NCBI GenBank assembly: GCA_965223155.1
Contig: CBDCVR010000014.1
Coordinates: 608,001 to 672,000, forward strand
DNA length: 64,000 bases
Source: Candidatus Multivoradales bacterium
GTDB lineage: Bacteria; Acidobacteriota; Thermoanaerobaculia; Multivoradales; JAHEKO01
Direction of reading: 5' to 3'
Below the pieces are notes generated by a model, which saw nothing but the letters and a program-made list of their open reading frames with translations, made no database searches and was not told the DNA's origin. A program made the position numbers and the translations under genes. This document shows positions 16,388-22,425 of this stretch, piece by piece. Position 1 is the stretch's first letter, and every line of letters begins with the position of its first letter.

Positions 16388-17373
16388 TAAACTCTTCCGA
16401 GCTCTCCGACGCAGGCATTTTGAGCCGCATGAACGTTCTGGGCGACCCGGTTCGCTGCCGGCTGCTCTTGCTGTGCGAGAGCCAGCCGCTCCGCGTCTCG
16501 GAGCTCTGCGACGTCGTCCAGCTTCCCCAGTCGACCGTCAGCCGGCACTTGAAGACGCTGTCCGAGGACGGCTGGCTGGAGTCGACGAAGGACGGCACCA
16601 GCCGGCGCTACTCGGCCCGCGATCTCAGCCCGGGGCCGGCACTCGAACTCTGGCATATCGTCCGCTCCGAGCTTGCCGACAGCGCCCGCGCCCGCGAGGA
16701 CTTGCGCCGGCTGGGAGGGGTCCTGGCTCGCCGCAAGAGCCGTTCGCAGCAGTTCTTCTCGTCCTCGGCCGGCCGCTGGACCGAGCTTCGCAAGGAGCTC
16801 TTCGGCCAGCGTTTCGACCTCGAGGCGGCTCTGGCCTTCTTGGACGAGAGCTGGGCGGTCGGCGACTTCGGCTGCGGCACCGGCAATCTGGCCGCGGCCC
16901 TCGCGCCGCACGTCCGCCGGGTCGTGGCGGTCGATGAGTCGCCCGAGATGCTGGCCGCCGCCGGCGAGCGCCTGGCGAGCTTCGCCAACGTCGAGGTGCT
17001 GGAAGGCACGCTCGAGAAGCTGCCCGTCGTCGACGGAGCGCTCGACGCCGCCGCCATTGTCCTGGTGTTGCACCACCTGGAAGACCCGGCCGCGGCTCTA
17101 TCCGGAGCCGTGCGCACGCTACGAGCCGGCGGCCACCTGCTCGTGGTGGACATGCTGCCGCACGAGCGCGCCGAGTTCCGGATCGAGATGGGCCACGTCT
17201 GGATGGGCTTCGGCGAGGAGCAGATTCGGGAGTGGCTGGACGAAGCCGGGCTCGAACGAGTCCGCATCCGGACGCTCACCGGACGGCCGGAGGCCAACGG
17301 CCCTTCCCTCTTCGTGGCCCGCGGCACGAAGACCACGAAACCCGACACTTCCGAGAATCGATCGAATCAATAG
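16378..17373 (+). CDS. sahR: ArsR-HTH + SAM-methyltransferase-domain regulator (SahR-like)
   Basis: ArsR HTH (LGDPVRCRLL…PQSTVSRHLKTL) fused to a class I MTase domain (DFGCGTG, LVLHH, GHVWMGF); immediately upstream of ahcY. Confidence 0.85.
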   Translation: MNGLNSSELSDAGILSRMNVLGDPVRCRLLLLCESQPLRVSELCDVVQLPQSTVSRHLKTLSEDGWLESTKDGTSRRYSARDLSPGPALELWHIVRSELADSARAREDLRRLGGVLARRKSRSQQFFSSSAGRWTELRKELFGQRFDLEAALAFLDESWAVGDFGCGTGNLAAALAPHVRRVVAVDESPEMLAAAGERLASFANVEVLEGTLEKLPVVDGALDAAAIVLVLHHLEDPAAALSGAVRTLRAGGHLLVVDMLPHERAEFRIEMGHVWMGFGEEQIREWLDEAGLERVRIRTLTGRPEANGPSLFVARGTKTTKPDTSENRSNQ

Positions 17374-17406
17374 ACCGGAGATACCGATCCCGAAAAGGAG
17401 ACTTCG

Positions 17407-18903
17407 ATGACTCTGATGACCGAAACCGAACCGAAAGCCCGAGCCGAAGAATCGGCTCGCCCCCTCTACAAGGTCGCCGACCTCAACCTGGCCGAGGCCG
17501 GCCGCAAGGAGATTCGCCTGGCCGAGCACGAAATGCCCGGACTCATGGCGCTGCGCGCGAAGTACGCCGAGACCAAGCCGCTGGCCGGCGCCAAGATCAT
17601 GGGCTCGCTCCACATGACCGTCCAGACCGCGGTCCTGATCGAGACCCTGACCGACCTGGGCGCCGACGTGCGTTGGGTGTCTTGCAACATCTTCTCGACC
17701 CAGGATCCGGCGGCCGCCGCGGTCGTGGTCGGCCGGCCCGAGACCGGCGGCACCGTCGAGAGCCCGGCCGGCACGCCGGTCTTCGCCTGGAAGGGCGAGA
17801 CCCTCGAAGAGTACTGGTGGTGCACCAAGGAGGCTCTGGCTTGGCCGGACGGCAGCGGCCCGGACCTCATCGTGGACGACGGCGGCGACGCCACGCTTCT
17901 GGTGCACAAGGCCCGCGAGTTCGAGCAGGCCGGTGCCGTGCCCGCGTTCGACGCCGACAACGAACCGGAGGAGTGGGGCATCATTCTGGACACCATCCGT
18001 GGCGAGTTGGCTGAGAACCCCGGCCGCTGGACCGCCATCGCCGACGGCATCCAGGGCGTCTCCGAGGAGACCACGACCGGCGTCCACCGGCTCTACCAGA
18101 TGGCCACCGAGGGCTCGCTGCTCTTCCCGGCGATCAACGTCAACGACTCCGTGACCAAGTCCAAGTTCGACAACGTCTACGGCTGCCGCCATTCGGTGGT
18201 GGATGGCCTCAACCGGGCCACGGACGTCATGATCGGCGGCAAGGTCGCCGTGGTCTGCGGCTACGGCGAGGTCGGCAAGGGCTGCGCCCAGGCCCTTCGC
18301 GGCCAGGGCGCGCGCGTGGTGGTGACCGAGATCGATCCCATCTGCGCTCTGCAGGCCGCGATGGAAGGCTACGAGGTCACCACCCTCGAGGACGTCCTCG
18401 AGGAAGGCGACATCTTCGTCACCACAACCGGCAACTTCGACATCATCACCGCCGAGCACATGGCGCGCATGAAGGACAAGGCCATCGTCTCCAACATCGG
18501 CCACTTCGACAACGAGATCGACATCGCCGGGCTCAAGAAGATGGACGGCGTCAGCGCCGAGAGCATCAAGCCGCAGTACGACGAGTGGAACTTCCCGGAC
18601 GGGCACTCGGTCCTCATTCTGGCCGAGGGTCGGCTGATGAACCTGGGCTGCGCCACCGGCCATCCCTCGTTCGTCATGTCGGCGTCGTTCACCAATCAGG
18701 TGCTGGCCCAGATCGATCTCTGGGCCAATCGCGGCGCCTACGAGAACCAGGTCATGATGCTCCCCAAGAAGCTGGACGAAGAGGTCGCCCGCCTGCACCT
18801 CGACCAGCTCGGCGTCCGGCTCACCCGCCTGACGAAGGAGCAGGCCGACTACATCGGCGTCGACGTGGACGGCCCGTACAAGCCCGACCACTACCGCTAC
18901 TAG
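17407..18903 (+). CDS. ahcY: Adenosylhomocysteinase
   Basis: [52 protein letters not shown] and [10 protein letters not shown]; SD AGGAG. Confidence 0.98.
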
Positions 18904-18992
18904 GCCGATCGTCGTCACAAGAGATCTGGTGCCAAGGTTCGGCCAGCCGTATGGTCCGGCGAGCCGCGCGGATCGGCTTCCCGACATCCACG

Positions 18993-19027
18993 AGGGCGCG
19001 GGGCCAAAGCCCCGCGCCCTTTCTTCT
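18993..19027 (+). terminator. Intrinsic terminator after ahcY
   Basis: AGGGCGCGGGGC-CAAA-GCCCCGCGCCCT 12-bp stem followed by TTCTTCT. Confidence 0.8.
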
Positions 19028-19060
19028 GTGCCCCGTCCGCGCGGCCCGCGACGCCTGGCC

Positions 19061-19543
19061 TCAGTCGAGCTCGCGCAATTCCAGGCGGCGGATCCGCCAC
19101 TCCCCCGCCTCACGCACCATCCGCGCCTCGACCGGGTAGAGCTCGGTTCCCGCCAGGTCTCCGAGGTCGTTGACGAAGGTCACGGTCGCAAAGACCCGGG
19201 CGTGCTCCTTGCCCTCCAGCAACACCTCCATCGGCCCCAGTGACACCACCAGGCTCCGCGAGCGCGAGCGGTAGGCCAGGATGGCGCGGATGAGATCCTG
19301 GCGGTTCGAAGTGGCGTAGCCCTCGGGCTCGGCTTCGAGTAGGAATTCGCCGGCAAAGAGATCCGCGATCTTGCGCGCCCGACCTGCCCCCTCGAGCTCG
19401 CTCTCGAACGGCGACTTGGTGCCGAGCTCGGCCAGCTCCTCGAGCTGCCGCGCGATCGCTCGCTCAGGACTCGACCACGCGCCCCAGGCCAGCCACAGAC
19501 CCACCGCCACCGAGACCACGACCAAGAGCGTGCGCGGGGTCAT
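19061..19543 (-). CDS. Membrane-anchored NTF2/SnoaL-like protein
   Basis: Start MTPRTLLVVVSVAVGLW (N-terminal TM), overlapping the upstream stop; NTF2-like end MVREAGEWRI. Confidence 0.6.
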   Translation of the reverse strand: MTPRTLLVVVSVAVGLWLAWGAWSSPERAIARQLEELAELGTKSPFESELEGAGRARKIADLFAGEFLLEAEPEGYATSNRQDLIRAILAYRSRSRSLVVSLGPMEVLLEGKEHARVFATVTFVNDLGDLAGTELYPVEARMVREAGEWRIRRLELRELD

Positions 19544-20833: not shown

Positions 20834-21688
20834 TCAGGTTCCGACCCCCAGCTCTTCGACCCGAAACTCGTAGCGGGCCCCGCAGAACGAACACGTGGTC
20901 TCGATCTCGGTCCCGTCCTCGACCAGGTGGTCGCGATCTTCCTGGGGAAGCAGCGCGAGCGCATCCAGGAAGCGCTCGCGGCGGCACCGGCAACGGTACT
21001 CCAGCTCCTGGCGCTCCAGCAGCTCGACATCGAAGTCTCGAAATACGGAAGCCACCAGACCCGAGACGCCCTTCGCCTCCAGGATCCGGCTGACGCCTTC
21101 GAGCGCCGCCAGATTCGCCTCCAGCCCGGAAACGTCTTCGTCCGGCGTCCCGGGTAACGCTTCGACGACCAGACCGCCGGCCGCCCCGATACCCAGCGGC
21201 TTGGGCAAGACGCCCAGTAGCACCGCCGAGCGGATCTGCCGGCTCTGTTCCAGATAGTGCGCCAGATCGTCACCGATCTCGCTGGTGGTCAGGGCCACTC
21301 GGCTGGTGTACCGCTTGCCCTCCCTCTCGCGCGTCACGTGCAGGAAGCCCTTGCCGATCGCGTCCGCGATCCGGATCTTGTCCGCCTCCGGAGTTTCCAG
21401 CAACGGGTTGCCGATCGTCCCGCGCAGAGCGCCGCCGCCCTCGACCTCGGCCCGGACCGTACCCGCGGGCCCGTCACCCCGTGCCTCGAGAATAAGCCGC
21501 GCGGGCACCTTGAAGGAGAGACGGGACAAGAGCACCGCGCCGGTCAAGAGGCGGCCCAAGGCCACCGCCGCCACCGGCGAAAGATCCAGACGCCGGCGGG
21601 CTTCTTCGAGAACGAAGGCACTGTCCACGGCCACCCAGCGAAAGGCGCCCCGGGCTCCGAGCCCCGTCTGCAAGAAGGACCGTTCCAC
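20834..21688 (-). CDS. hslO: Hsp33 redox-regulated chaperone
   Basis: ALGRLLTG, GDGP.G, YLEQSRQI, AAGG and Zn motif CRC…CSFC. Confidence 0.92.
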   Translation of the reverse strand: MERSFLQTGLGARGAFRWVAVDSAFVLEEARRRLDLSPVAAVALGRLLTGAVLLSRLSFKVPARLILEARGDGPAGTVRAEVEGGGALRGTIGNPLLETPEADKIRIADAIGKGFLHVTREREGKRYTSRVALTTSEIGDDLAHYLEQSRQIRSAVLLGVLPKPLGIGAAGGLVVEALPGTPDEDVSGLEANLAALEGVSRILEAKGVSGLVASVFRDFDVELLERQELEYRCRCRRERFLDALALLPQEDRDHLVEDGTEIETTCSFCGARYEFRVEELGVGT

Positions 21689-21732: not shown

Positions 21733-22425
21733 ATGCGCTTCGAAACCCGGGTCAAACAGGCGATCTACGAGTACCTCGCGCGCGAGGCGCGGGCGCCCGA
21801 GCTGGCCGAGGTCGCCAGGCTCCTGGACACCGATCACGCCTCGGTCCGGGCCGCCTACGCCGAGCTCGCGGCCCAGCGCCTGCTGGTTCTCGAAGAGGAC
21901 GGCGTCTCGATTCGAATGGCGCCTCCCTTTTCGGGAGTCCCTACGCAGCACGTGGCCCACGTCGGTGGCCGCAGCTACTTCGCCAACTGCGCTTGGGACG
22001 TCTTCGGAATCGTCGCCGCCTTGGGCTCGGACGGACGGGTAGGGTCGCGCTGCGAGCAGTCGGGCGAGCCCCTGGAGCTCAATCTCACCGCCGCCGGCCC
22101 GGACGACCGCTTCGCCGACGGCTCGTGGCGCTTCCACTGCGCGCTCCCGGCCCGCCACTGGTGGGACGACATCGTCTACACGTGAAGCACCATGCTGTTC
22201 TTCCGGTCGGAAGACGACGTCGCAACCTGGTGCCGAGCGGCGGGAATCCCGGTGGGACCTACCACCAACCTGGCACAGCTCTGGGGACTTGCGCATGCCT
22301 GGTATGCGAACCGCCTGGAACCCGAGGCCGTCCGTCCAAGCGCCGAAGAGATCCCCGGGATCTTTCGGAATCTGGGCCTCACCGAAGACTTCTGGAACCC
22401 CCTGGCAAACAACCCGGTCCTCTGA
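21733..22425 (+). CDS. MerB-like organometallic lyase with in-frame TGA (22183-22185), probably read as selenocysteine
   Basis: ORFs 21718-22185 and 22192-22425 share a frame. N-terminal wHTH, YFANCAWD (MerB C96/D99), SRCEQSG (C117), then IVYT-TGA-STMLFFRS matching MerB C159-xxxx-FF. SECIS hairpin follows. Confidence 0.8.
22186..22218 (+). other. Bacterial SECIS element (candidate)
   Basis: Stem TCTTCC (22199-204)/GGAAGA (22209-214), loop GGTC 20-23 nt after the TGA, and a bulged U below the stem closed by G22197-C22215. Confidence 0.75.

Follow-up and report, generated by a model that had tools for sequence, protein, structure and literature searches.

The window considered here, a stretch of 64,000 nucleotides from Candidatus Multivoradales bacterium (contig CBDCVR010000014.1, positions 608,001 to 672,000), carries on its forward strand, at 21733-22425, a MerB-like gene interrupted in frame by a TGA triplet at 22183-22185 and, judging by the comparative evidence, very probably encoding a selenoprotein. 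An earlier interpretation made from the letters alone, hereafter the sequence-only reading, had placed the two open reading frames (ORFs) flanking this triplet in one frame and derived from them a 230-residue readthrough product, which translation confirms: ORFs 21718/21733-22185 and 22192-22425 share a single frame, the TGA at 22183-22185 is the sole interruption between them and, once this triplet is read as selenocysteine (Sec, U), the full coding sequence (CDS; 21733-22425, +) comprises 230 residues followed by a terminal TGA at 22423-22425. Regarding the start, the alignment of the homologues favours ATG 21733 over GTG 21718.

Following an N-terminal helical, winged-helix-like part as judged from the AlphaFold2 secondary structure (residues 1-63; 21733-21921), the Pfam MerB domain PF03243 (residues 66-191; 21928-22305) spans the TGA. 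The readthrough protein scores 86.7 bits against PF03243 (gathering score 27) over profile positions 1-125 of 126, whereas the separate halves reach 46.3 and 20.4 bits, and this match is the only one to PF03243 in the genome. In HMMER alignments with solved MerB chains, the TGA (predicted Sec151) falls on Cys159, as had been claimed for the stop from the sequence alone, and the C-A-W-D motif (21988-21999) provides Cys86 (TGC, 21988-21990) and Asp89 (GAC, 21997-21999) as the equivalents of Cys96 and Asp99; Cys107 (22051-22053) falls on Cys117, which is buried and structural in MerB. Cys96, Asp99, Cys117 and Cys159 are given as the MerB-defining signature in PMC8261052. This four-residue signature is thus incomplete in the window protein, where C86, D89 and C107 are kept and position 159 is Sec rather than Cys. 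The AlphaFold2 model built from an alignment of 23 family members has a mean pLDDT (predicted local distance difference test) of 95.2 and a pTM (predicted template modelling score) of 0.92, and a Foldseek comparison of it with the PDB puts MerB or MerB2 in each of the 11 top places (E-values of 1.3e-11 to 1.7e-6, TM-scores by target of 0.55-0.72, identity of about 20% in the structural alignments); as modelled, the readthrough protein is of the MerB fold.

The C-terminal extension (residues 190-230; 22300-22422), delimited by alignment, AlphaFold2 model and conservation, is Trp-rich, is well modelled and goes about 27 residues beyond the C-terminus of MerB. This additional tail, already pointed out in the sequence-only reading, is real and conserved (W190, Y191, R194, E206, F220 and W221 across the 100 Sec-type genes described below), but it is not specific to the Sec form since Cys-type relatives carry it too.

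In public databases, the gene appears cut at the TGA, just as had been expected: the record of the window's own product is 150 residues long, gene callers give products of 146-150 residues, and 115 of the 120 closest public protein clusters stop at the TGA column, several of them being named "organomercurial lyase" or "alkylmercury lyase".

Conservation of the TGA and of a SECIS-type hairpin

Among 61 genomes of the same order, 24 were matched and yielded 25 matches, namely 20 members of the Sec family with a TGA, three distant members with Cys (L041-L043) and two canonical MerB-like genes. In all 20 family members, the TGA occupies one alignment column within the shared context W-W-D-D-I-V-x-T-U-x-x-M-L-F-F-R-S-E-E; the three distant members and both canonical genes have Cys at this column. 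A wider scan, with one genome per species, gave at least 588 pattern matches, of which at least 580 were confirmed by tblastn, Cys forms being among them. The best 80 of these at least 580 stretches each contain exactly one in-frame TGA, in the same column (80/80), and come from carriers that the labels of the metagenome-assembled genomes (MAGs) assign to 11 named phyla: Acidobacteriota (22), Gemmatimonadota (18), Verrucomicrobiota (14), Eiseniibacteriota (8), Chloroflexota (7), Planctomycetota (3) and five other phyla with one each, three carriers being unplaced. Together with the 20 genes of the same order, they make up the 100 Sec-type genes on which the following counts are based. The TGA column is conserved in 100/100 with coding conservation on both sides, Thr directly precedes Sec in every one of them, and C86, D89 and C107 are kept in 100, 99 and 97, respectively.

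An even sample of the window's phylum (201 genomes, E ≤ 1e-20) gave a family match in 18 genomes, with an in-frame TGA, counted at any column, in all 17 near full-length rows, two of which come from the unpublished genomes G082 and G202. Two TGA-containing copies of the family were observed in one genome, G139 (C200:27047-27715 and C181:19739-20413). At a larger scale still, when 1.84 billion cluster representatives were searched with a profile, 4662 proteins passed a threshold of E ≤ 1e-3 and 365 one of E ≤ 1e-30. In the best 150 representatives, the TGA column holds Cys in 79, is just missed by 57 that end before it and is a gap in seven, the remainder having W (2) or A, H, Y, R and P (one each). 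With 79 of 150 showing Cys and 57 ending ahead of the column, the Sec/Cys alternation typical of selenoprotein families is therefore present, and the TGA/Cys alternation with flanking conservation that the sequence-only reading had suggested looking for is found. Most likely, then, a MerB-like Sec family that is equally mis-cut occurs in soil bacteria of many phyla. Besides, short contigs of the sequencing runs X1 and X3 match only 22158-22222 of the window, i.e. the TGA and the hairpin described below, with 4-5 differences; these contigs probably stem from homologues carried by other organisms of the same sample and illustrate the conservation of this segment.

Downstream of the TGA, the hairpin TCTTCC-GGTC-GGAAGA noticed in the sequence-only reading is present at 22199-22214, 16 bases after the TGA, with 19 nt separating the TGA from the GGTC loop (22205-22208); its 6-bp stem TCTTCC/GGAAGA and loop constitute the core of a putative SECIS (Sec insertion sequence) element and coincide with codons F156-F157-R158-S159-E160-D161. 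A bulged U had also been described, but of the alternative folds of this sequence a single one shows it, and it is no conserved feature. The 16-base core is identical in 90 of the 100 Sec-type genes; seven of the 10 variants have an A-to-G change compatible with G·U pairing, one a terminal A-to-G change and two a changed closing pair. As given in the legend to Fig. 2 of PMC13188914, the consensus bacterial SECIS (bSECIS) model has a loop of 3-9 nt, a stem of 4-16 bp, a G within the first two loop positions, a spacing of 16-37 nt and an MFE (minimum free energy) of at most -7.5. The element at hand, with a 4-nt GGUC loop, a 6-bp stem, G at loop positions 1 and 2 and a 19-nt spacing, falls within these limits, and the MFE of the UGA plus 42 nt is ≤ -7.5 kcal/mol in 100/100 genes, in line with the conserved SECIS-type hairpin expected earlier.

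Synonymous codon choice within the hairpin is close to frozen. Counted from the TGA, codon +5 is TTC in 95 genes and CTC in 5, +6 is TTC in 100, +7 is CGG in 98 and AGG in 2, +8 is TCG in 98, and +9 is GAA in 92 and GAG in 8, which corresponds to synonymous codon entropies of 0, 0, 0.14, 0.08 and 0.40 bits for the five hairpin codons; the within-gene control, for which those other residues were taken that are kept in 85 or more of the same 100 genes, gives 0.56-2.34 bits (0.56-0.92 for Phe, 1.67-2.26 for Arg and 1.46-1.66 for Ser). Glu is particularly telling, with GAA over GAG by 92:8 at Glu160 in the hairpin versus GAG over GAA by 72:25 at Glu206 outside of it. Conservation of the protein alone is therefore insufficient to explain these codons. 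Across the 100-sequence alignment, standard pairs occupy 97.4% of the pair cells, compared with 45-72% in controls with the partners displaced by 1-3 columns. Pair 22-27, which closes the loop, is C-G in 97 genes and A-U in two, the latter change being compensatory and altering the amino acid in one of the two, and an extra pair 16-33 is U-A in 61, U-G in 17, C-G in 3 and unpaired in 18.

Several observations weigh against this reading of the hairpin. Its folding energy is no better than that of shuffled sequences in this G+C-rich stretch (z = -0.82; 38 of 200 shuffles fold as well), and the exact hairpin appears in only 75 of 100 minimum-energy folds, its absence from the other 25 being due to CTC-TTC-TTC permitting a second register. 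The stem is nearly invariant, so that covariation rests on two pairs, and some Cys forms have the F-R-S residues as well, which means that part of the conservation is at the protein level. In a Rfam scan of 22100-22330, no bacterial SECIS family was matched. The sole hit in the same region, to the ZMP-ZTP riboswitch inside the CDS (22223-22311, +), was taken as a chance match, its 17.7 bits (E 0.64) falling short of the gathering score of 39.

Regarding the decoding machinery, the genome, which is 98.66% complete, was expected to contain the genes for Sec insertion, and it does: selA, selB and selD, at 455, 325 and 253 bits, respectively, exceed their curated cut-offs and are free of internal stops, and a tRNA-Sec with anticodon TCA is found at 73 bits. 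As selA is above its cut-off in 59 of the 61 genomes of the same order, its co-occurrence with the family is not discriminating. In place of the E. coli fdhF SECIS, to which the hairpin had been likened in the sequence-only reading, an own-genome control is offered by a molybdopterin oxidoreductase gene resembling formate dehydrogenase (FDH) (L128; G000:C13:453800-455821, -), which has an in-frame TGA in the context C-A-A-T-U-H-A-P-T and a 6-7 bp hairpin whose GGUCU loop begins 18 nt past the UGA. By these sequence features, it is a second predicted selenoprotein gene, with a SECIS geometry nearly the same as in the MerB-like gene. Finally, contigs assembled from runs X1 and X3, both from one sample, carry the stretch without a differing letter, TGA included, so that the TGC or TGT named as a refuting outcome in the sequence-only reading is not seen in them; as these contigs may be the source of the present assembly, the agreement excludes only a private assembly error.

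Relation to SaoL, canonical MerB and cysteine-type relatives

The presence of Sec at the position of MerB Cys159 has already been published for SaoL, as stated in the consulted part of the preprint by Haft and Gwadz (10.1101/2022.07.06.499078). SaoL and the window protein have the MerB fold and PF03243 in common and, according to the preprint, also Sec at the Cys159 equivalent, Cys and Asp at the equivalents of Cys96 and Asp99, and truncation at the TGA in databases. They differ in several other respects. The window protein scores only 36.7 bits against the SaoL model NF040728, whose cut-off is 140, with residues 6-118 alone being aligned, and its Trp-rich C-terminus is the longer by about 27 residues. 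Thr precedes Sec in the Sec-type genes, compared with the C-U motif reported for SaoL in the accessible preprint text. SaoL sits in a nine-gene neighbourhood belonging to the SAO (selenocysteine-assisted organometallic) system, whereas the Sec-type loci are found without a SAO locus or conserved neighbours; SaoB and SaoC had no match in the own genome, which is a weak negative because no control genome was matched either. As to the carriers, those of the Sec type are labelled Acidobacteriota, Gemmatimonadota, Verrucomicrobiota and others; in the part of the preprint available, SaoL is reported only from anaerobes, e.g. Firmicutes, spirochaetes and deltaproteobacteria (10.1101/2022.07.06.499078).

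Compared with MerB (EC 4.99.1.2; PDB 3f0o, 3f2f and 5c17), the window protein has the same fold and keeps the equivalents of Cys96, Asp99 and Cys117, but it has Sec for Cys159, no Cys160 and a longer C-terminus, and the window gene is accompanied neither by a MerA above cut-off nor by a mer operon. The suggestion made in the sequence-only reading that this may be a separate family agrees with model scores, motif and gene context alike, which set it apart from both SaoL and canonical MerB. Relative to SaoL, what is new is a family with a sequence, a motif, a tail, a gene context and a set of carriers of its own. No model of NCBIfam 20.0 captures this T-U MerB-like family, and it was not found in the consulted text of PMC9312934, of the SaoL preprint and of the deep-Sep and BSepDB papers, whose supplementary tables may list it. 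Likewise, the accessible text of the 2026 inventory PMC13188914 has only SaoL under MerB-like proteins, although its supplement or the groundwater-MAG study that it cites may list the T-U family.

Closer in architecture are the Cys-type tailed relatives (L041-L043 and P0002-P0050), which resemble the window protein in length, N-terminal part and Trp-rich tail at 25-31% identity. They differ by a Cys at the Sec column, and L041-L043 lack the hairpin-forming codons. Many of these relatives also have Cys for the Asp99 equivalent, which results in a three-thiol site made of C-x-x-C plus C. In a FastTree tree of 121 rows, this C-C-C site occurs in 30 of the 60 Cys rows, and a single clade (support 99) gathers 55 of the 60 Sec rows, with the C-C-C clade (support 95) standing outside it; this coarse tree is rooted on one long branch. 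All representatives ending at the TGA column retain Asp.

Genomic context, proposed function and alternatives

In the window, the MerB-like gene is surrounded by genes for a divergent Hsp33, a FAD oxidoreductase, two proteins without Pfam match and an alpha/beta hydrolase. The gene for Hsp33, a redox-regulated chaperone (20834-21688, -), lies 44 nt from the MerB-like start, a pairing that is not conserved elsewhere. Further upstream, a 664-residue ORF without Pfam match (17119-19113, -) overlaps with several long ORFs in other frames. ORF clustering across 81 loci, with flanks of up to 6 kb, found no family in more than seven of the 81 loci besides the gene itself and its shadow ORFs. The small clusters that were obtained correspond to an ABC (ATP-binding cassette) ATPase, a class I methyltransferase, an amidohydrolase, a pyridoxal phosphate (PLP) decarboxylase, a short-chain dehydrogenase/reductase (SDR), a PEMT/ICMT-type methyltransferase and a FAD oxidoreductase, and no metal theme emerges among them. 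In the absence of a recurrent neighbour family, the context therefore gives no hint of the substrate. The flanks of the Cys form L041 (DinB_2, a weak AhpC/TSA match and AllG) are uninformative as well.

All in all, the locus is probably best described as one gene for a 230-residue cytoplasmic selenoenzyme of the MerB fold, in which Sec recoding and MerB-like catalysis would be combined. With UGA 22183-22185 in the ribosomal A site, SelB-GTP-Sec-tRNA(Sec) would dock on the GGUC-loop hairpin 16-31 nt downstream, such SelB-mediated docking being the established picture of bacterial Sec insertion, and Sec would be inserted in place of termination. In the folded protein, Sec151 would form a MerB-type catalytic triad with Cys86 and Asp89. 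At neutral pH, Sec is present as the ionised selenolate. In analogy to MerB, a carbon-metal(loid) compound would have its metal bound by the Sec151 selenolate and the Cys86 thiolate, after which Asp89 would protonate the leaving carbon, so that R-H is released and the metal is left on Se and S. As there is no mer or SAO cluster, the metal would either pass to cellular thiols or stay bound.

A carbon-metal(loid) lyase activity is, on balance, the function we lean towards for this predicted selenoprotein, by analogy with MerB, because the protein keeps the MerB fold together with the Cys/Asp/(Se)Cys triad. The near-invariance of Asp89 in the Sec forms (99/100), as opposed to Cys at this position in many Cys-type relatives, suggests that the Sec clade in particular may have kept lyase chemistry. 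As to the substrate, organomercurials are to our knowledge the only compounds known to be cleaved by the MerB fold, yet an organomercurial as natural substrate is considered doubtful, the more so because MerA is absent and Hg-Se bonding is strong. The points that weigh against mercury resistance are indeed several. The protein scores far below the MerB equivalog models (35.2 vs. 193 bits for NF009710 and 34.7 vs. 200 bits for NF033555); the top MerA-type match of the own genome reaches 384.8 bits against a cut-off of 454, and among 22 candidates scored per genome, MerA is above cut-off in five of the 61 genomes of the same order, no carrier of a Sec form (20 genomes) being one of the five; the neighbourhoods, as seen above, are not conserved; and the Hg-Se bond is so strong that it would impede product release. 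For comparison, in one of these five, the unpublished genome G005, MerA and a canonical Cys-type MerB-like gene (L044) lie about 6 kb apart. As a separate observation, a MerA-like pyridine nucleotide-disulfide oxidoreductase gene of a related genome (G006:C282:16389-17741, -; 408 bits, below the MerA cut-off) contains one in-frame TGA and, on this feature, may be another selenoprotein gene.

An unlikely though still serious alternative is that the protein is a selenoprotein but no lyase and that its MerB-fold domain, through the Cys/Sec site, binds or senses a soft metal(loid) (Hg, As, Cd, Cu or Se), in which case it would act as a chaperone or buffer or else, with the N-terminal winged-helix-like part in use, as a regulator's sensor. 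The N-terminal part does give weak Pfam matches to GntR (E 0.027) and IclR (E 0.19), as well as Foldseek matches to DtxR-type N-terminal DNA-binding domains (E > 0.1), but all of these helix-turn-helix matches are sub-threshold and below every cut-off, and the N-terminal helices belong to the MerB/SaoL fold, as the NCBIfam alignments begin at residue 24 for MerB and residue 6 for SaoL; MerB shares this architecture and is nevertheless an enzyme. The C-C-C site found in half of the Cys rows of the tree would suit binding better than protonolysis, no partner gene is present that could take over a released metal, and PMC8261052 reports MerB variants that bind other metals. Asp89, on the other hand, is the very residue needed for protonolysis, and its retention in the Sec forms speaks for a lyase.

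The possibility that the TGA is a true stop, with a second small protein made from ATG 22192 and a split MerB maintained by translational coupling, appears very improbable. An ATG does lie 9 nt past the TGA in 95 of the 100 genes, and the short products of the public gene callers and the clusters ending at the column would fit such an arrangement. In the other five genes, however, an Ile codon replaces the ATG three codons after the TGA, which leaves no second start there, and Met is also common at this position in the continuous Cys forms. Moreover, the frame and the 2-codon spacing are invariant (100/100), the synonymous sites are frozen in a SECIS-type hairpin at the canonical distance, and the split would delete the Cys159 equivalent, whereas the Cys homologues run through with Cys at this very position. 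That the gene is a pseudogene, that an error of sequencing or assembly is involved or that the TGA is read by another genetic code can practically be dismissed, since the W or G at the Sec column of the public full-length calls P0153 and P0154, as if tables 4 or 25 read TGA, probably comes from gene callers applying another genetic code to short contigs, and stands against a TGA at one column in 100/100 genes from 11 named phyla with both flanks conserved, the same letters in the X1/X3 contigs (from one sample and possibly the source), the use of TGA as terminator by the gene itself and many homologues, and selA, selB and selD genes without internal stops.

Significance of a Sec-type MerB-like family

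Beyond the locus at hand, it may tentatively be proposed that the MerB superfamily has a second and far more widespread Sec branch, consisting of a stand-alone Cys/Asp/Sec lyase that is found mostly in soil phyla and has neither MerA nor another partner. If so, the selenolate of such a stand-alone lyase would allow the capture of trace organometal(loid)s, and the enzyme would be a candidate for methylmercury demethylation independent of mer, or for the cleavage of an organo-arsenic, -tin, -lead or -selenium compound outside the reach of the known enzyme families. It would also follow that genes of this kind are both miscounted and overlooked in metagenomic surveys of merB: surveys requiring Cys159 leave out the Sec-type genes, and counts based on hidden Markov models (HMMs) take in catalytically headless fragments. 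The very uniform SECIS-type hairpin provides test material for recoding. As the Sec-type carriers are without MerA, the family bears on organometal handling outside the mer system, and Sec-assisted organometallic chemistry, so far a matter of the anaerobic SAO system, would be extended to phyla outside those discussed in the consulted part of the SaoL preprint.

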